Assembly: GCA_963732395.1 (NCBI GenBank)
Contig: CAVSZF010000007.1
Span: forward strand, 761,571 to 825,570
Length of the DNA stretch: 64,000 nt
Direction of reading: 5' to 3'
From: an uncultured Spirochaetota bacterium
GTDB taxonomy: Bacteria > Spirochaetota > UBA4802 > UBA5550
The notes beneath the pieces are model-generated. The model saw nothing but the letters and a program-made list of their open reading frames with translations, ran no database searches and was not told where the DNA came from. The stretch's first letter is position 1. Each line of letters opens with the position of its first letter. Shown in pieces: positions 7,322-15,635 of the stretch. Both the position numbers and the translations under genes were made by a program.

Positions 7322-8728
7322 ATGAAAAAAATAGTATTTATTGAGCCGAAGCCACCGGGGGGACACATTTTCAGCAAGTTCGGATTGCCACGGATTGGCA
7401 TTTTTATCCTCGCCACGATGATGAGAGACCGGGGATGGGATGCGGAAGTGATGGTAGAAGAGATGCAGAGGATTGATTATAAGGTCCTTTCTGGGGCGGA
7501 TATCGTCGGTATATCGACCATTACACCAACTGCGATCAATGCCTATGACATAGCGGACAGAGTAAGGAGTATGGGAGTAACGGTCGTCATGGGGGGGCCC
7601 CACGTGACGTTTTTACCGGAAGAAGCCCTCGGTCATGCAGACTACGTCATCAGGGGTGAGGGGGAAATTCCCCTGATGCGGTTTATCGATGAATGGGAGG
7701 GCGGTGGTTGCTATAAAGAAGTCCCGAACCTCTCGTTCATGTCGGATGGAACTCCTGTTCATAATACGATTAGGGAGTTCGAAAATGACCTTGATCGCTT
7801 TCCCGCGGCAGATTTTTCCCTTATGAAGATCGACAGGCCCCTCAAGGTGATACCGATGCAGACCTCCCGGGGCTGTCCCTATGACTGCTCGTTTTGCTCC
7901 GTCACGGGGATGTTCGGGAAAAAGTACCGCTACCGCTCGACTGAACACATCATGGAAGAGCTCAGAAAGTACCGGGACTCGGGGCGGATGATATTTTTCT
8001 ATGACGATCATTTCGCTGCGAATAAAAAACGGGCGAAGGAACTCCTCCTGGCCATGATTGACGAGGGGTTTCGTTTCAAGTGGTCGACCCAGGTCCGTGC
8101 CGATATTGTGAAGGACCTGGAATTGATGGACCTGATGAAGCGAAGCGGATGCCATACCCTCTTCATCGGCTTCGAATCGTTCAACCCGGAGAGCCTCAAA
8201 GAGATGAAGAAGAAGCAGACGGTCGATGATATCATACATGCAGTCAAGGTGATTCATTCCTACGGTATACATATTCACGGCATGTTCGTACACGGATTCG
8301 ACAGCGATACGATGGATTCGGTCGCCATGACCGTGCGCTATGCGAAAAAAATGAGAATAACTTCCGCACAGTTTCTTCTCCTGACCCCCTTCCCGGGCTC
8401 AGAATTCTATGATTGTGTCAATGACAGGATCCTTTTCAATGACTGGTCGATGTATGATGCCCACCATGTTGTGTACCAGCCCAGGAATTTCTCACCCCAT
8501 TCCCTCCAGCTGTCGCAGGTATACAGTCATGAAAAATTTTACTCGGTCCCGGAAATCTTCAGGAAGCTGATAGGCAGAAGGTGGATCGCATCCGGCATCG
8601 GAATCTATGCGCGCCTTATCAATAGAAAATGGAAGAAGGAGAACAAGGAGTATCTCCGTCTGCTTCAGGAGATCTCAGGCGGGGCAGGCCCGATTGGCTG
8701 GTTACTCAAAGAAGAGACAAGGGTCTGA
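7322..8728 (+). CDS. B12-binding domain radical SAM protein (class B rSAM)
   Basis: N-terminal cobalamin-binding Rossmann-like region. Radical SAM CxxxCxxC motif (SRGCPYDCSFCSV). 468 aa, typical for this family. AT-rich 280-bp leader upstream. Confidence 0.8.
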   Translation: MKKIVFIEPKPPGGHIFSKFGLPRIGIFILATMMRDRGWDAEVMVEEMQRIDYKVLSGADIVGISTITPTAINAYDIADRVRSMGVTVVMGGPHVTFLPEEALGHADYVIRGEGEIPLMRFIDEWEGGGCYKEVPNLSFMSDGTPVHNTIREFENDLDRFPAADFSLMKIDRPLKVIPMQTSRGCPYDCSFCSVTGMFGKKYRYRSTEHIMEELRKYRDSGRMIFFYDDHFAANKKRAKELLLAMIDEGFRFKWSTQVRADIVKDLELMDLMKRSGCHTLFIGFESFNPESLKEMKKKQTVDDIIHAVKVIHSYGIHIHGMFVHGFDSDTMDSVAMTVRYAKKMRITSAQFLLLTPFPGSEFYDCVNDRILFNDWSMYDAHHVVYQPRNFSPHSLQLSQVYSHEKFYSVPEIFRKLIGRRWIASGIGIYARLINRKWKKENKEYLRLLQEISGGAGPIGWLLKEETRV

Positions 8729-8821: not shown

Positions 8822-9106
8822 GTGATGGGTATGGCAAAGAAGCTGATTCTCCATGGCAGGGTGCAGGGGGTCTTCTGCCGCGCCTTTTGTGCCCATTACG
8901 CAAGAAAACACCGGATACGCGGTACGGCCTCCAATCTTTCCGATGGAACCGTCAGGGTCCTTCTCGACACAAATGACCCGGACCTGACAGGCCGCTACGT
9001 ATGCGATATCCGAAGCAACCCCGAGGGGTACGCCTTTTACGGCAGGATCGATTCTGTTAATGTGGAAAATCATGACGGTCCCCTGACCGGTGAGTATTCC
9101 TTTTAG
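8822..9106 (+). CDS. acyP: Acylphosphatase
   Basis: 94 aa. Acylphosphatase signatures HGRVQGVFCRAF and GTASNLSDGTVRV. The start could instead be one of the following Met codons (8828 or 8834). Confidence 0.75.
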   Translation: MMGMAKKLILHGRVQGVFCRAFCAHYARKHRIRGTASNLSDGTVRVLLDTNDPDLTGRYVCDIRSNPEGYAFYGRIDSVNVENHDGPLTGEYSF

Positions 9107-10164
9107 TGTTCCCGTCGGTTGGCGCCGGGCCGAATCAATTCGCTCAGCCAGGATCCGGCTATTTCAGCCGCAACCATGCTTCCGTACAGGTTCCAGTGGG
9201 GATCGTTACGCTGATTGAAGATGCGACGATCGAAGCGCTGTCTTTTCTTGAACCCATCCAGAAGGTTGAGAAAGGGGATCCCCATGCCTGATAGTTCCTC
9301 ATGAAGCATTCCGTTCAAGGTATAAAAATCGTACTCGTCTGGATTCCCGCCACGTCGCGCAATCGCATTGTGCCGCGCTTCCGGATAAAGTTGCACATCC
9401 GCCGGGCACGCTACGACGACCAGTGCGACACCCCTGGCATTGCATATCTCCCTCATCCTCCGGACAATTGAAAGGGAGCTTTCAACGTCCCTCCTGAAAC
9501 CGTGGTTTCCTTTGTGGAATAGATTCAATTGAGTATCGACGAGAAAGTGAATGTAGGCGTCATTATTCCGGATGAGTGTGTCATCGCGATAGGTGCCGGT
9601 GCCAAAAACTTTTCCGTCTGGTTCGATGCGGTTGACGATGAAGGCGTGCAGGAATGTGGCGGCCGCCGAGCCGTAGTGAAGACGTTTGCGCGTCCCGCCC
9701 CTGTTGAAATCGTCGCCGAGGAATAGAGTCAGAAGCACCATGTCCGGATGTAAACGTAACCCTTCGTTGATCAGTATCGAGAGATAGTCGATGGGGGCCG
9801 CGGAGGGCACGCCGAGGTTATAGATCTCGACATCCGGAACTGACCGGCGGATTTCCTTCCCGAGAAGGAATACATAGGTGCGTTGATAGGGGACGGCTCC
9901 GTATGTCTGTGAATCGCCGATGGCGATGATCCTGAAAACATCCGGAGGTTTTATTTCATTGAACTCGACGTCCTTGAATCCGCGGGAGTTGAGCCTGAAG
10001 CCGTTGAATTCGAGCGAATTCGGTCTACCCCGGTATTTGAGGTAGGTGCCGTCAGGCATGATGGCGAATCCTGGATTGCAGCGTCCGTAGATGCGAAGTG
10101 ACAGTTCTAGCACGGCGAGGCAGATGATTGGGATGAGAAGGGCGATAACTACGTGTTTTTTCAT
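9103..10164 (-). CDS. SGNH/GDSL-family hydrolase (AlgX/AlgJ-like), secreted or membrane-anchored
   Basis: N-terminal TM/signal sequence. GDS-type catalytic block IIAIGDSQTYG. C-terminal DPHWN block. Start set at the second Met (MKKHVV), which has a GGAG RBS 6 nt upstream. Confidence 0.7.
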   Translation of the reverse strand: MKKHVVIALLIPIICLAVLELSLRIYGRCNPGFAIMPDGTYLKYRGRPNSLEFNGFRLNSRGFKDVEFNEIKPPDVFRIIAIGDSQTYGAVPYQRTYVFLLGKEIRRSVPDVEIYNLGVPSAAPIDYLSILINEGLRLHPDMVLLTLFLGDDFNRGGTRKRLHYGSAAATFLHAFIVNRIEPDGKVFGTGTYRDDTLIRNNDAYIHFLVDTQLNLFHKGNHGFRRDVESSLSIVRRMREICNARGVALVVVACPADVQLYPEARHNAIARRGGNPDEYDFYTLNGMLHEELSGMGIPFLNLLDGFKKRQRFDRRIFNQRNDPHWNLYGSMVAAEIAGSWLSELIRPGANRREH

Positions 10165-10629
10165 TTTTGGCTCCATGAAACGAGGTAAATGTCGAGTGAT
10201 TGATAGTGGAGCAACGTATAAACCGGTTTGCGGGAATACGGTTTTAAAAATTGTGACGCATGATCATCGTACAATCGCCATTAATCCGAATTTCTTCCCT
10301 CCGTTGCTTTCCTTGTCAGGTCTACAAGGGTGGAAAGCTTCGATGGCGGAGGGCTGCACATCGCGTGTCGTTCTTCAGCGTTGTAATTATCTGCGAGGTA
10401 TGCCTCGATATCAATGCGTTCATGCCAACAATCGGATATAGTGCGGCAGGGGAGCGGATCGTTGAGCATGCGGCAATAGCTGAAAGGGACATAGTGGCCG
10501 AGGGTTCTGCAGTAACCTTTTTCATTGTCATACCGATTCTTCATGCCGTGTGTCCCGTTACCTGAACGATAACGCGGACGGGATAACGAACAATAGTAGA
10601 CATTTTTTATTCCGCCCGCGTTTATGATC

Positions 10630-12018
10630 CTACCACTTGCCGGTCTTGGAAAGTGAGGGCTTCGGGAGGCCCTTCAACTCCTCAAGTGCGGTGTCGACTT
10701 CGTCCTGGTGAAGTTCATGGTCCATAAGCTTGTCATGGAGGAAGAGGTCGTAGCCGTAGAGGTCCATGAGGCCGTGGCCACTCAGGTTGAAGATGATGAC
10801 TTTCTCCTTGCCCTCTTCCCTGGCCTGGTTGGCCTTGCGGATGGTCGCGGCGATGGCGTGGCTTGTTTCCGGCGCCACGATCAGACCCTCTGTTTGTGCG
10901 AAAAGCATTGCGGCCTTATAACACTCGATCTGCGCGATCGCCATCGGGGTAAAGAGGCCCTCCACGACACCCTGGGAAACAAGAGGGGCCATACCGTGAT
11001 AACGCAGGCCCCCGGCATGGATTGCGTCAGGGACAAAGCTGTGCCCGAGTGAATACATGGGGAGAAGGGGGGTCATCTTCGCGATATCGCCGTGATCGTA
11101 GATAAACGGGCCCTTGGTAAGGGTGGGACAGGATGTGGGCTCCACCGGAATGATCTCGATTTGAGCGCCATTGATCTTGTCTGAAGCGTAGGGGAAGGCG
11201 AGGCCTGCGAAGTTGCTCCCACCACCCGCACATCCGATAACCACGTCGACTTTTTTCTCACCGAAGATTTCCATCTGTTTTTTTGTTTCAAGACCGATGA
11301 TCGTCTGGTGAAGAAGAACATGGTTCAGGACGCTTCCAAGGGAATATCGCGTCTGGCCGGTTTCGTCAGTGACCGCGGCCTCGATCGCCTCGCTTATCGC
11401 AATACCCAGGCTACCCGGGGTATCGGGGTGCTCTTTGAGGACCGCCCTTCCCGCGTTGGTTTCCGTACTAGGGCTCGGTATGCAGGTGCCTCCCCATGTC
11501 TGCATCATTGTTTTACGCATGGGCTTCTGATCGAAGCTGATCCTGACCATGAATACCTTGCACTCCATTCCTAGGAGGGAGCAGGCGAAGGAGAGGGCGC
11601 TTCCCCATTGCCCGGCACCTGTTTCCGTGGTCAGTTTTTTGATGCCGAATTCCCTGTTGTACCAGGCCTGTGCAACGGCAGTGTTTGGTTTGTGGCTACC
11701 CGCCGGCGAGACGCTTTCATTCTTGTAGTAAATCCTTGCGGGGGTGTTCAACGCCTTTTCGAGAAACCGGGCGCGATGTAGCGGAGAAGGCCGCCACCGG
11801 TAGAGAAGATCCAGGATGCCTTCGGGTATGTCGATCCAGCGATCCTGGGACATTTCCTGCTCAATGAGGTTCATCGGAAACACCGGTGCCAGCATATCGG
11901 GCGAGATCGGTTTTCCGTCAGGCCCGAGTGGCGGTTGAAGTGGAGTGGGAAGATCGGCCGCGATATTATACCACTGGCGAGGGATATCCTTTTCTGAAAG
12001 AAACACTTTGGTCTGCAT
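10630..12018 (-). CDS. trpB2: TrpB2-type tryptophan synthase beta-like PLP enzyme
   Basis: 462 aa long-form TrpB. PLP-lysine region [24 protein letters not shown] glycine loop. The N-terminal extension is typical of TrpB2. No trpA or other trp genes nearby. Confidence 0.85.
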
Positions 12019-12083
12019 AAAGTTCTCCTTGATTGTAAAATTGCCGGTTCGCGCCGGTGATTGGAACGCGCGCTGATCGGTTG

Positions 12084-12362
12084 TTAACTGTGAATCTCTT
12101 TGTGCCGTTCGATCATGGTTCTAAAAGGTGAACGGGTTTTTTTCAGTTCTTTAGAGCCCCTCGTTATTTTGCAGAGGCTCAAGCCGAGTTTTTCTGCTAT
12201 TTTGCGCTGGCTCATGCCGTCATAGAGAAGTTTTACCAGTTCCCACCGGGACGATATTTCGGCAATCTCGTTTCCGGTAAGGATGCTCCTCAAGAAGGAT
12301 TCGATTTTTTCCGCGTCGTCGGTATCTGCAAGAACCCGCGCGATTTCCTTTAACTTATTCAT
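12084..12362 (-). CDS. yerC: TrpR-related YerC/YecD family DNA-binding protein
   Basis: 92 aa. Helix-turn-helix [23 protein letters not shown] resembles the TrpR/YerC family. GAGG RBS upstream. Sits 65 bp upstream of trpB2 on the same strand. Confidence 0.75.
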
Positions 12363-12378
12363 AGCCTCATGTTAAATA

Positions 12379-12414
12379 GTTTCTATTGGTAGAAACGATT
12401 CTATTAATAGAAAC
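12379..12414 (-). promoter_or_regulatory. Two abutting 18-bp palindromic operator-like sites
   Basis: The two sites are GTTTCTAttggTAGAAAC and GATTCTATTAATAGAAAC, the second containing a perfect 14-bp palindrome TTCTATTAATAGAA. They lie 17-52 bp upstream of the yerC start codon. Confidence 0.45.
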
Positions 12415-12469
12415 ATATTTCGCATCGGCTTTCTGTGTCAAGGGTTTTTTCAGGCATGGGAGCGTTTTT

Positions 12470-13066
12470 TCAGACGGGCCCTACAGGCAAGGGTTTGGGA
12501 TTTTTCATCCGGATGCCTGTAACGGCCCGGTAGCGACGATAAAGGACATGTGTATTCATGCTCAGGAATTCGAAATGAGCCGAGGTGTGTGCATAGGGAA
12601 TAAATGCCCGCAGTTCGGGGGAAAAGAGGGTTTCAAAATGGCGTTTGGAATGGCCATGGGCGGCTTTAACCGCCCCCATTCGACGAATATCACCATCGAA
12701 ACGGGGACTGATATGAAAGAGCTCGTGGAAAAGGACGCCGAGCTTTCCCTCCCATGACAGATCGAAAAAACGAGGCATGTAGAAATAAAGCATGTAAAGA
12801 CAGGTTCTGCCGTTGTGGGATATTTCGGGTATGGCGTATGTCCGGCCGCGGTGGAGCAGGCGAGGGGAGCCGTTTTTAAACCGGAGGGGAATAAGCTTTC
12901 CGTAAAGGCCGCCCCTCCTCCCCTTCCGATTTGAGCCGACGCATACAAGAATCCGTTCGACATCAATGTGAGCAAGAGAGGGGGTGCGGGACACAATTTC
13001 GGAAATGATCGCGGTTAACGTGCTGGAAAGATCGATTTCATCCTGAGGGATTGATTCGTTCTGCAT
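12470..13066 (-). CDS. Putative zincin-like metallopeptidase (HExxH...HxxxF; DUF45/YgjP-like or SprT-like)
   Basis: HELFH followed by HGHSKRHFETL. Start set to the internal Met (MQNESIP). It still overlaps the recN 3' end by ~28 bp. Same strand as nadK-recN. Confidence 0.55.
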   Translation of the reverse strand: MQNESIPQDEIDLSSTLTAIISEIVSRTPSLAHIDVERILVCVGSNRKGRRGGLYGKLIPLRFKNGSPRLLHRGRTYAIPEISHNGRTCLYMLYFYMPRFFDLSWEGKLGVLFHELFHISPRFDGDIRRMGAVKAAHGHSKRHFETLFSPELRAFIPYAHTSAHFEFLSMNTHVLYRRYRAVTGIRMKNPKPLPVGPV

Positions 13067-14756
13067 TGCGTACCATTTCCTCGGCGTGTTTGACGGATAT
13101 GTCGGTGATAGTTTCACCTGCCAGCATACGGGCGATTTCCCGTATTTTTTCCTTTACCCCCAATTGTTTAACCAGGGTGGTGATTCGCTCCCCTGCCTTC
13201 GATTTCTGTACGGTGAAGTGACTGTCGGCCATGGCGGCTATCTGGGGCAGGTGGGTAACGACAAGGACCTGCCTGTCACCAGCAAGGGACTTGAGTTTCC
13301 GGCCGACGATTTCTGCGACCTTTCCTCCAATGCCCGCATCGACCTCATCGAAGACAAGGCTTTCCACGATGTCTGCGGAAAGTATGACATTTTTGATGGC
13401 GAGCATTATGCGCGACATTTCCCCACCGGAGGCCACTTTGCGGAGCTGGCGCAGGTCTTCCCCGGCGTTTGCCGAAAGAAGGAATTCGACCCGGTCGAGA
13501 CCGTGTGGGTAGAGCATGTACCGCTTGTTATCAGCCTCTATCTCTCCCTGGGGATCTACTTCCCGATTGATGGAAACCCGGAATTGGGTGCCCGACATGC
13601 CTAGGTCACCGAGCTCCTTCATGACCATGGTTTCGAGGCGCCGCGCCGTGGATTTGCGTTTCTCGGATAGGGAAAGGGCCACCTCTTTCGCTTCCCGGAC
13701 CGCCTGCCGGTATTCCGTCTTAATACGCTCAAGTTCCTCGGCGCCGGAGTTTATGGCATCGAGCTCACTCCGGGCCGTCTCCGCGTAGTCGAGGACGGTC
13801 CGGATGGTGTCTCCGTACTTTTTTTTCAGGTTCGATATAAGCGAGAGCCGTTCCTCAACCTGGTTGGTGCGCTCGGGGGAAAAGTCGATATGGCCCTCGT
13901 AATCGCGGAGGTACACCGCGGCGTCCTCGAGGGAATAGAGAGACTGTCGGATGGTGTCGAGAAGGCCGGCGATTTCCGGGTCATATTCCGATATTTTCGA
14001 AAGGCTTTGCTCGGCGCGTTTCAGGTTCTGGAGTGCGCCGCCTTCCCCGTTGATGAGGCGGGAGGAGGCGTTTATCTCTTTGAACAGTTTTTCCGAGTTA
14101 GCCAGGAGCAGCGACTCGTTTTTGAGTTCCTCGTCTTCACCCTCCTTGAGGGTTGCCGCCTCGATTTCCCTGACTGCGAAGGTGTTATATTCGATACGGC
14201 GGGCTTTTTCACGTTCATCGATTTCGAAGGAGCTGAGGCTGTTTTTCAGAGACTGTAGGCGGTCATGGATCCCGCGGATACGGGAGACGTCGTCTTCAAG
14301 ACCGCCGAAACTATCGAGAAGTTCACGATGGCGCGATACTTTGACGATGCTCTGGTGCTCGTGCTGGCCATGGATGTCGATTAGGTGATCTGATAGTTCC
14401 TTGAGCTTCGATGCGGGGACCTGGACCGCATTGACAAAGGAGCGGCCCTTGCCGCTGGAATAGAGTTCTCGTCTCAGGACCAGCGTGTCGTCATCCGAGT
14501 CGATTCCCGCCTTATCAAGGATTTTTTTGATCGCTGGGGCGGAAGAGATATCAAAACTGGCTTCAAGTGTCGATTTTTCGAACCCGGTCCGGATCATGTC
14601 CGTGGTCATTTTATCGCCCATGACGCCGGAGAGGGCGTCGATCAGGATCGACTTTCCTGCGCCCGTTTCACCGGTCAGGATGTTGAGACCCTTGCCGAAG
14701 GAGATTGCCAGGTCTTCAATTATGACGAAATTTTTTATTTTAAGTTCGTTCAGCAT
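13038..14756 (-). CDS. recN: DNA repair protein RecN
   Basis: 572 aa SMC-like protein. N-terminal Walker A NILTGETGAGKS. Coiled-coil middle. C-terminal signature/Walker B (LVFDEVDAGIGG). Confidence 0.9.
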   Translation of the reverse strand: MLNELKIKNFVIIEDLAISFGKGLNILTGETGAGKSILIDALSGVMGDKMTTDMIRTGFEKSTLEASFDISSAPAIKKILDKAGIDSDDDTLVLRRELYSSGKGRSFVNAVQVPASKLKELSDHLIDIHGQHEHQSIVKVSRHRELLDSFGGLEDDVSRIRGIHDRLQSLKNSLSSFEIDEREKARRIEYNTFAVREIEAATLKEGEDEELKNESLLLANSEKLFKEINASSRLINGEGGALQNLKRAEQSLSKISEYDPEIAGLLDTIRQSLYSLEDAAVYLRDYEGHIDFSPERTNQVEERLSLISNLKKKYGDTIRTVLDYAETARSELDAINSGAEELERIKTEYRQAVREAKEVALSLSEKRKSTARRLETMVMKELGDLGMSGTQFRVSINREVDPQGEIEADNKRYMLYPHGLDRVEFLLSANAGEDLRQLRKVASGGEMSRIMLAIKNVILSADIVESLVFDEVDAGIGGKVAEIVGRKLKSLAGDRQVLVVTHLPQIAAMADSHFTVQKSKAGERITTLVKQLGVKEKIREIARMLAGETITDISVKHAEEMVRNAERINPSG

Positions 14757-14774
14757 GGCGATGCATCGGTTCCA

Positions 14775-15635
14775 TCATCCCCACCCGAGCTTTTCGCGCA
14801 GGATGGAGTAGTAGTTTTTTTCCGGGTGTGTGATTGACTTTATGTTGCTTTCCGACCTGCGAATGAGGACCTCGTCGTTCCCGTTGATTTCAATCCCTTC
14901 TTGCCCGTCGATTGTCAATAATAAATTTTCATAATCCGACATCACCCTGGCGCAGAAGCGAGAGCTTGCCGGAATAATCACCGGACGCATGGCAAGGCTG
15001 TGGGGGCATATGGGGCTCAGGAGAAAAATGCTGGTTTCGACCGGGTTGATGATCGGACCTCCCGCCGAGAGGGAGTAGGCGGTGGAGCCGGTGGGTGTGG
15101 ACATGATAAGCCCATCGCCGGTGAAGGAGCTGAGAAAATTTCCATCGATTTCAAGGTCAAGTCTGATGGGACGCATAAGGGCTCCCTTGTGAATCACCGC
15201 ATCGTTCAGGAAACTCATGCTCTCGGTCTCTTTGCCGTTTCTGAAGATGGCTGCTTCAAGGACGAGGCGCTCAACGGCCGAGTATTCGCCTCTGAGAACT
15301 CCAGACAGATATGGCTCGTACTCGTCAGGGCTGAATTCCGTGAGGAACCCGAGGCGCCCACGGTTGATTCCGAAAAGTGGGCATCCGGTCTCCCGAAATA
15401 TACGGGCGGTGCGGAGAAAGGTACCGTCACCGCCTATTACAATGACAAGATCTGCGGAATTCACGAATCGGTCAAAGGGAACAGCAAGACGGTAACATTC
15501 ATCGTTTCTGATGATATCGTATTCCGGGAGCAGGACCGTTATGCCCTCACCCTCGAGAAACTGAACAAGGCGTGTGAGCATCAGGGCGCAGATGCCGTCG
15601 TCAGGGCGGAAATTTATCGACACGGTTCGAATCAT
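14775..15635 (-). CDS. nadK: NAD(+) kinase
   Basis: GGDGT motif (VIVIGGDGTFLRTAR). NE/D short motif. 286 aa. Immediately upstream of recN, a common arrangement. Confidence 0.9.
   Translation of the reverse strand: MIRTVSINFRPDDGICALMLTRLVQFLEGEGITVLLPEYDIIRNDECYRLAVPFDRFVNSADLVIVIGGDGTFLRTARIFRETGCPLFGINRGRLGFLTEFSPDEYEPYLSGVLRGEYSAVERLVLEAAIFRNGKETESMSFLNDAVIHKGALMRPIRLDLEIDGNFLSSFTGDGLIMSTPTGSTAYSLSAGGPIINPVETSIFLLSPICPHSLAMRPVIIPASSRFCARVMSDYENLLLTIDGQEGIEINGNDEVLIRRSESNIKSITHPEKNYYSILREKLGWG

Follow-up and report, generated by a model that had tools for sequence, protein, structure and literature searches.

The window (the whole 64-kb stretch of DNA that was analysed) carries on its minus strand a small gene of the TrpR family, here called trpR, which is preceded by a promoter-like sequence and two abutting palindromes and is followed by trpB2 and by a short ORF with four cysteines. 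The features of this locus, in the order in which they are read on the minus strand, are:

12445..12450, minus strand: A-tract (AAAAAA), directly upstream of the −35 box (sequence)
12436..12441, minus strand: −35 hexamer TTGACA of the predicted trpR-trpB2 promoter (invariant in 10 aligned upstream regions)
12412..12417, minus strand: −10 hexamer TATGTT, after an 18-nt spacer; its final 3 bases are the first 3 of operator 1
12397..12414, minus strand: candidate operator 1 (promoter-proximal), GTTTCTATTAATAGAATC on this strand, spanning the predicted transcription start and the last bases of the −10 box
12379..12396, minus strand: candidate operator 2 (distal), GTTTCTACCAATAGAAAC on this strand, in the 5′ UTR (14/14 versus the family consensus)
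12084..12362, minus strand: TrpR-family repressor gene, 92 aa, presumed to encode the operator binder (PF01371, fold, conserved recognition helix)
12019..12083, minus strand: trpR-trpB2 spacer, 65 bp, with no operator and no significant RNA structure
10630..12018, minus strand: trpB2, encoding a TrpB-like PLP enzyme of 462 aa (NF009057, 694.9 bits; TIGR01415, 629.9 bits)
10281..10544, minus strand: four-cysteine ORF, 87 aa, probable third gene of the operon (conserved after trpB2 in relatives)

Read on the plus strand, positions 12379-12396 are GTTTCTATTGGTAGAAAC and positions 12397-12414 are GATTCTATTAATAGAAAC. An earlier note, made from this DNA alone, had described two nearly identical, abutting 18-bp inverted repeats, the second containing a perfect 14-bp palindrome, and we confirmed both observations. 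The two 18-mers abut exactly, have 15 of 18 bases in common and are each 7-4-7 inverted repeats. The arms of the one at 12379-12396 pair at all 7 positions around the non-palindromic centre TTGG, and those of the one at 12397-12414 pair at 6 of 7, with the perfect 14-bp palindrome TTCTATTAATAGAA inside it (12399-12412).

No other 7-4-7 palindromes (6/7 or more pairs in each) abut one another in the 64-kb window, and composition-preserving shuffles yielded 0.115 abutting 7-4-7 pairs per window, a figure for which mutual resemblance of the two was not yet demanded. No second exact copy of TTCTATTNNTAGAA was found anywhere in the window. When up to 2 mismatches were allowed, there were 7 matches versus 4.0 expected in 64 kb, which is the level of chance and indicates that TTCTATTNNTAGAA is not a dispersed repeat. 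A scan of the window for further operator sites gave, as the best other match, one of just 11/14, at position 7609.

The hexamers TTGACA (12441-12436) and TATGTT (12417-12412), separated by 18 nt, constitute a promoter-like match (10/12 in the promoter scan). The palindromes had previously been placed between the promoter and a GAGG ribosome binding site. They do lie between the promoter-like hexamers and the ATG (12362), from which operator 2 is separated by 16 nt, but they are not wholly downstream of the promoter, as 3 bp are shared by the promoter-proximal site and the −10 hexamer. As for the GAGG, it is present (12368-12365), but just 2 nt separate it from the ATG, and relatives show no conservation of it. 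Operator 1 thus starts inside the predicted −10 box and covers the likely transcription start, and this geometry is that of promoter occlusion and not that of a site between promoter and ribosome binding site.

The A-tract at 12445-12450 may be an UP-like element, and an A-rich run before TTGACA is kept in the 10 aligned relatives. Two direct repeats 20 bp apart, AGGGTTTTTTCAG and AGCGTTTTTTCAG, occur at 12441-12473 of the window, and a weaker, third copy occurs at 12497. Read on the minus strand, the repeats are A-tracts, situated just before the −35 box and across the stop codon of a 215-aa ORF.

This ORF (12470-13117, minus strand, stop at 12470) gave a borderline match to the Pfam family PhageMetallopep (24.8 bits; cut-off 23.7). 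In its listed form, the ORF shares 80 bp with the 3′ end of recN (13038-14756, minus strand), and its true start may be located further downstream. The gene order recN, 215-aa ORF, trpR, trpB2 is kept in L002-L004, L018 and L087, which are among the loci described below.

The position of trpB2, co-oriented with the TrpR-family gene and 65 bp past it, was as the earlier note had given it. No second promoter was detected in the spacer between these genes, which also contained no motif match at 11/14 or above and whose fold had a z-score of +0.15 versus shuffles. No terminator was found on the minus strand around the promoter or in the spacer. Being on the same strand, only 65 bp apart and with no terminator found between them, trpR and trpB2 are probably co-transcribed. 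The gap between trpB2 and the 87-aa ORF is 85 bp. Rfam (E-value mode) identified no RNA family in the part of the window from 9000 to 15000, and neither the 5′ UTR nor the spacer folded better than shuffled sequences; we therefore discarded an RNA element or an attenuator as interpretations for the window. A tblastn search with TrpE and TrpG detected no other trp gene in the window.

The TrpR-family protein

The 92-aa protein matched the Pfam family Trp_repressor (PF01371) with 67.5 bits (cut-off 27), the match covering residues 3-87 of 92. Its scores were below the cut-offs of the TrpR equivalog TIGR01321 (53.5 bits; cut-off 67.25) and of the YerC/YecD model TIGR02531 (28.6 bits; cut-off 42.2). 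The protein is a TrpR-family member that matches neither the TrpR nor the YerC/YecD equivalog of NCBIfam. The gene had been named yerC in the earlier note, and this name had to be given up, since the protein fails the YerC/YecD model and scores higher on the TrpR model. YerC of Bacillus subtilis is HisR, a histidine repressor with the motif cacTTTAnnnnnnTAAAgtg (PMC9413887), and the label would therefore now predict the wrong effector, an annotation trap that is corrected here.

The AlphaFold model of the protein (monomer, pLDDT 92.9) consists of six helices. The top 42 matches obtained with Foldseek against the PDB were all chains of the TrpR family (probability 0.99-1.00). The predicted monomer superposed on the HisR-type structures 3G1C, 3FRW and 3KOR with TM values of 0.77-0.83, versus 0.59-0.65 for E. 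coli TrpR, and phmmer rated the protein as slightly more similar to HisR-type chains than to E. coli TrpR.

All 31 aligned family members share an unchanged recognition helix, SLCKITRGS. Comparison of six DNA-contact residues, taken from a published list (PMC9413887), revealed that R69, T83 and R84 of E. coli TrpR are retained, that I79 is replaced by L, and that A80 and T81 are replaced by C and K; all six positions are invariant in the family. The substitutions of A80 and T81 in the recognition helix appear to fit the changed inner half-site of the operator (see below) and could explain a new specificity, and the two-fold symmetry of the site would fit binding by a dimer. At the positions that we take, from the E. 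coli TrpR structures, to form the tryptophan pocket, T44, R54, V58, R84 and G85 are retained, including the two arginines, R54 and R84, which presumably sandwich the indole ring. Two pocket positions differ, S88 being replaced by E (E72) and T81 by K (K65), and both replacements are invariant in the family.

Conservation of the sites across related loci

The alignment of 31 homologues led to 80 genome loci (594 kb), mostly from Spirochaetota MAGs; the other labels among them were SAR324, Acidobacteriota, Calditrichaceae (Calditrichota), Aminicenantes and Clostridia. The nearest relatives of the locus by TrpR, TrpB2, RecN synteny and TrpE are labelled Spirochaetes, Spirochaetota or Leptospirales, and the sole database protein 100% identical to the one in the window is labelled as belonging to a 'Chrysiogenales bacterium' MAG, a label that may be unreliable.

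The 594 kb were scanned for GTTTCTA-N4-TAGAAAC at 12/14 or better. All 49 matches fell at trpR-family loci, 47 of them within approx. 215 bp upstream of trpR, and the remaining two (both in L047) before a canonical trpB1 that is then followed by trpR. The gene trpB2 directly follows trpR in 31 of the 80 loci. At 30 of these 31, a site was present no more than 200 bp upstream of trpR (in the remaining one it lies at −213), and at the 49 loci without trpB2 only a single case of a site upstream of trpR was found. Taken with the chance-level occurrence in the window, this contradicts a reading of the motif as a widespread repeat with no connection to trp genes, since in relatives it was confined to trpR-family loci.

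Across the 10 closest upstream regions, invariance is limited to TTGACA and the operator arms; the spacer between the −35 and −10 boxes, the 4-bp centres of the palindromes and the 5′ UTR all vary. The closest relatives retain even the imperfect base of operator 1 in the window, AATC for AAAC at the junction. It is the sequence of the arms that is kept and not merely their ability to pair, which identifies the pattern as the phylogenetic footprint of a protein-binding site.

A position matrix built from 73 sites gave the 20-bp palindrome tGTTTCTAT-nn-ATAGAAACa. There are 1 to 3 sites per promoter, and two positions relative to the promoter were distinguished: (i) at trpR promoters the first site starts, in nearly all cases, 21-22 nt past the −35 box, where the −10 box ends, and covers the start site, and (ii) at trpE promoters (see the next section) it starts approx. 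10 nt past the −35 box, between the two hexamers, and extends across the spacer and the −10 box. In either position, a bound repressor would occlude RNA polymerase. The spacing of neighbouring sites is 18 bp in the clade of the window and in L079 and L080, and 20-22 bp in L047, in L018 and at trpE promoters. An 18-bp spacing would place the dimers on different faces of the helix, which makes cooperativity uncertain.

A spacing of 65-80 bp was observed in SAR324 loci with two promoters. Four SAR324 loci (L007, L008, L012 and L015) carry three operator-like sites, approx. 215 bp upstream of trpR, with spacings of 65-66 and 80-82 bp; two TTGAC promoter-like boxes approx. 135-150 bp apart are present in L007, L008 and L012, and only one in L015. 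This layout, unlike the abutting tandem of the window, could reflect looping or a second transcript.

The constant partner of the sites is trpR, which was found in four arrangements: (i) trpR-trpB2, (ii) trpB1-trpR, in L047, where two sites (2657-2694) precede a canonical trpB1 and trpR, (iii) trpR-trpB1, in L189, where one site (397-414) precedes trpR and a canonical trpB1, and (iv) trpR alone, in L063. The regulator is tied to the tryptophan synthase beta subunit of either type. These loci appear to define a TrpR-family clade with its own 20-bp operator, spread over MAGs labelled Spirochaetota, SAR324, Acidobacteriota, Calditrichota and Clostridia.

Sites at trpE operons

The regulon search that the earlier note had suggested was run on the window, the related loci and metagenomes, and recovered promoters of trpR, trpB and trpE. 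In the metagenomes, the exact 18-mer was present at 120 loci, five of which adjoin trpR homologues and four of which have the site just upstream of trpE. Most of the 120 are chance matches (approx. 39 lie inside long ORFs), and no recurring downstream protein family other than TrpR was found among them, so only the nine beside trpR or trpE are informative.

One of these metagenome loci, L162, encodes a TrpE protein with 100% identity to the TrpE of Spirochaetes bacterium RBG_13_51_14, and this MAG also encodes a member of the TrpR-like family (P0012). Homologues of this TrpE were used to fetch eight further trpE loci, seven of which (L201-L206 and L208) came from relatives; the eighth, of Denitrovibrio acetiphilus, served as a control. 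All seven have the same organization, with TTGAC followed after approx. 10 nt by one site or by two sites 21 bp apart, then a leader peptide, a terminator and trpEGDCF(B). The leader peptides carry WW, WWW or WWWW, as in the examples MDPDMGRITSINKTIWWWRARTFR, MRNTATTTWWWTIHTFR and MNDRYNWWWWNVFP. The control locus encodes a WWW leader and has no site. Altogether, sites were present at the trpE operons of eight related loci (L162, L201-L206 and L208) and of three further metagenome loci. The leader/attenuator regions are located as follows:

L162, 7750-7980
L201, 2770-3000
L202, 2570-2700
L203-L206 and L208, approx. 1250-1500
also in L092 and L116

Three of the trpE loci share a genome with members of the regulator family: one contig carries both L201 and the TrpR homologue P0038, one MAG contains L203 together with the trpR-trpB2 locus L005, and another contains L162 and P0012. 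In these related Spirochaetota, a repressor and a Trp-codon attenuator probably control trpE jointly, as they do in E. coli. By extrapolation from the relatives, trpE may be controlled in this way in the genome of the window as well.

The sites, with their promoter geometry and their conservation, are associated exclusively with promoters of trpR, trpB and trpE. The presence of the motif at all three marks a tryptophan regulon and points to the palindromes as the operators of its repressor.

Two other groups of motif matches in the metagenomes were set apart from this regulon. In L113 (1893-1910), an exact GTTTCTATTAATAGAAAC is located 19 bp upstream of the gene for quinolinate synthase (nadA); as a single case it was treated as possibly fortuitous, and it could be either a chance match or a link between tryptophan and NAD metabolism. 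In L187 (167-233), three GTTTCTA-N4-TAGAAAC-like sites occur within 70 bp upstream of a small Cys-rich ORF, on a contig of 45% GC with DNA-methyltransferase-like genes nearby, and these are probably a similar operator of an unrelated system.

Proposed regulation and comparison with known systems

We propose that the sequence at 12379-12414 represents tandem operators for adjacent dimers of the TrpR-family protein, through which this protein would regulate its own gene and trpB2, with tryptophan as the likeliest corepressor, and we assign to this reading a probability of about 0.8. Operators for the adjacent TrpR-family repressor, which autoregulates and controls trpB2, had already been suggested in the earlier note, and both the phylogenetic footprint and the reconstructed regulon strongly support this suggestion. 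That the TrpR-like protein is the binder, that it represses, that it responds to tryptophan and that the genes are co-transcribed is what we infer from sequence comparison.

With plentiful tryptophan, dimers of the holorepressor would occupy operators 1 and 2 and block the promoter, and this would lower the production of the repressor itself, of TrpB2 and of the 87-aa protein (Orf87), in a combination of negative autoregulation and target control. When tryptophan is scarce, the sites would clear and TrpB2 would convert scavenged indole to tryptophan, the reaction known from work on Thermotoga and Sulfolobus; the trpE operon would be derepressed in parallel. At the trpEGDCF(B) promoter of the related genomes, the repressor would act alongside the attenuator with its Trp-codon leader peptide.

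The regulon is composed of trp genes including trpE, which makes L-tryptophan the most likely corepressor, as it is for E. coli TrpR. Against the proposed reading stand the score below the TrpR equivalog cut-off, the better superposition on HisR-type structures and the pocket substitutions S88 to E and T81 to K. In view of these substitutions, the effector could be a compound other than L-tryptophan.

The palindromes might, for example, be true operators whose effector is indole, an indole derivative or a pathway intermediate matched to the reaction of TrpB2. E72 and K65, invariant in the family, are compatible with this, the operon encodes an indole-using enzyme, and E. coli TrpR engineered at T44, T81 and S88 binds indole-3-acetic acid (according to PDB entry titles), which indicates that these positions tune the choice of ligand. 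We nevertheless consider such an effector improbable, because the regulon has the whole trpE operon together with a tRNA-Trp-sensing attenuator, the classical pairing with a sensor of free tryptophan. Moreover, R54 and R84, the arginines presumed to hold the indole ring, are invariant.

It is very unlikely that the motif is bound by another, unlinked transcription factor and that the TrpR-like protein has other targets. The absence of a site upstream of their own gene in 48 of the 49 family members not followed by trpB2 would agree with such a factor, but trpR is the only constant neighbour of the motif, in four arrangements and under at least five phylum-level labels. A palindrome of 20 bp that ends in TGT...ACA is, furthermore, the architecture of the TrpR and HisR motifs (PMC9413887), and the Deferribacterota trpE locus (as far as this locus goes) is without a site.

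The superposition of the predicted monomer on 3G1C, 3FRW and 3KOR and its phmmer similarity, slightly above that to E. coli TrpR, would suit a histidine repressor of the YerC/HisR type, whose sites would tie trpB2 to histidine status. We give this extremely little weight, since the TIGR02531 score is below both its own cut-off and the score on the TrpR model, and since HisR has the motif given above and a regulon of his genes and histidine transporters (PMC9413887), whereas all targets identified here are trp genes and those at trpE bear Trp-codon leader peptides. The pocket residues T44, R54, R84 and G85 are also kept, in contrast to HisR, which replaces tryptophan-contacting residues outside the HTH helix (PMC9413887).

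It is scarcely credible that the palindromes act as RNA, be it as 5′ UTR hairpins for stability or translation or as a terminator of the upstream 215-aa ORF: the transcript probably takes in operator 2 and some of operator 1, and a 7-bp hairpin is possible, but folding is weak (z = −1.7, −7.4 kcal/mol; 13 of 200 shuffles as good) and no T-run comes after it, Rfam was negative over 9000-15000, the arms keep their sequence across phyla without covarying while the loop varies, and the trpE sites lie between the −35 and −10 boxes, upstream of any transcript.

Regulation by tandem TrpR-family operators, as proposed here, has one of its closest counterparts in E. coli TrpR, which belongs to the same family, has the same fold as the 92-aa protein and acts at operators of trpEDCBA, aroH, trpR, mtr and aroL. 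Shared with that system are palindromic operators of 18-20 bp that overlap the core promoter, the presence of the regulator gene among the targets and, in the relatives, the combination of repressor and Trp-codon leader attenuator at trpE. The tandem sites of E. coli TrpR overlap at 8-bp offsets, whereas complete palindromes 18 bp (trpR) or 21 bp (trpE) apart are found here. More than one dimer of E. coli TrpR per promoter is possible (tandem-binding crystal 1TRR), and the window has tandem sites as well. The consensus tGTTTCTAT-nn-ATAGAAACa differs from that of E. coli TrpR, TGTAcTnGTnnACnAgTACA (PMC9413887), in that only the outer TGT/ACA and an inner T/A are common to the two and the CTAG core is absent. 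The hosts are also different: published reconstructions of TrpR regulons cover gamma-proteobacteria (PMC5343134), and the present regulon, which unlike that of E. coli TrpR includes trpB2, occurs in Spirochaetota and other lineages outside the gamma-proteobacteria.

The trpRBA operon of Chlamydia trachomatis, whose main promoter, located upstream of trpR, is under tryptophan-responsive repression by TrpR (PMC7755916, PMC6504234), resembles the locus in having trpR first and then a tryptophan synthase beta subunit for indole salvage. Unlike trpRBA, the window has a stand-alone TrpB2 with no adjacent trpA, and the operator sequence differs. The intergenic region of trpRBA contains an alternative promoter and a YtgR operator, whereas the 65-bp spacer of the window was devoid of any detected second promoter, attenuator or structure. 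With HisR, which is often autoregulated and often encoded by the first gene of its target operon (PMC9413887), the locus has in common a small TrpR-family protein of similar structure and a 20-bp palindromic operator; it is set apart by the operator motif, by the histidine effector of HisR and by the targets, which are his genes or histidine transporters in the one case and trp genes in the other.

The mechanism is classical, and what is new is the lineage, the operator sequence, the abutting tandem of full sites and the targets trpB2 and orf87. In the open-access full text we found nothing that links TrpR to trpB2, to spirochaetes or to the operator motif, and no description of the clade. The proposed regulation would extend control by a tryptophan repressor beyond gamma-proteobacteria and chlamydiae, with a different operator sequence, and the motif is directly usable for the annotation of trp regulons in uncultured genomes. 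The physiological role of TrpB2 has long been debated, and its placement in the same regulon as trpE would be regulatory evidence for a role of stand-alone TrpB2 in tryptophan supply.

Of the 80 genome loci, 17 have the 87-aa ORF after trpB2, as do two metagenome loci (L115 and L173), and these loci bear several phylum-level labels. The ORF has the pattern YCRxLGH..F.YC...PC...DCW, with four conserved cysteines, and gave no match in Pfam or NCBIfam; 311 cluster representatives were found in a library of 1.84 billion proteins. One speculative possibility, which we consider rather doubtful, is a role of the protein as the dedicated TrpB2 partner, whether as a subunit that binds metal or FeS or as a factor in regulation or substrate delivery, in the tryptophan-controlled module of this TrpR-family clade. 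If so, the two proteins would form a two-component module for tryptophan salvage and offer a direct handle on the role of TrpB2 in vivo.
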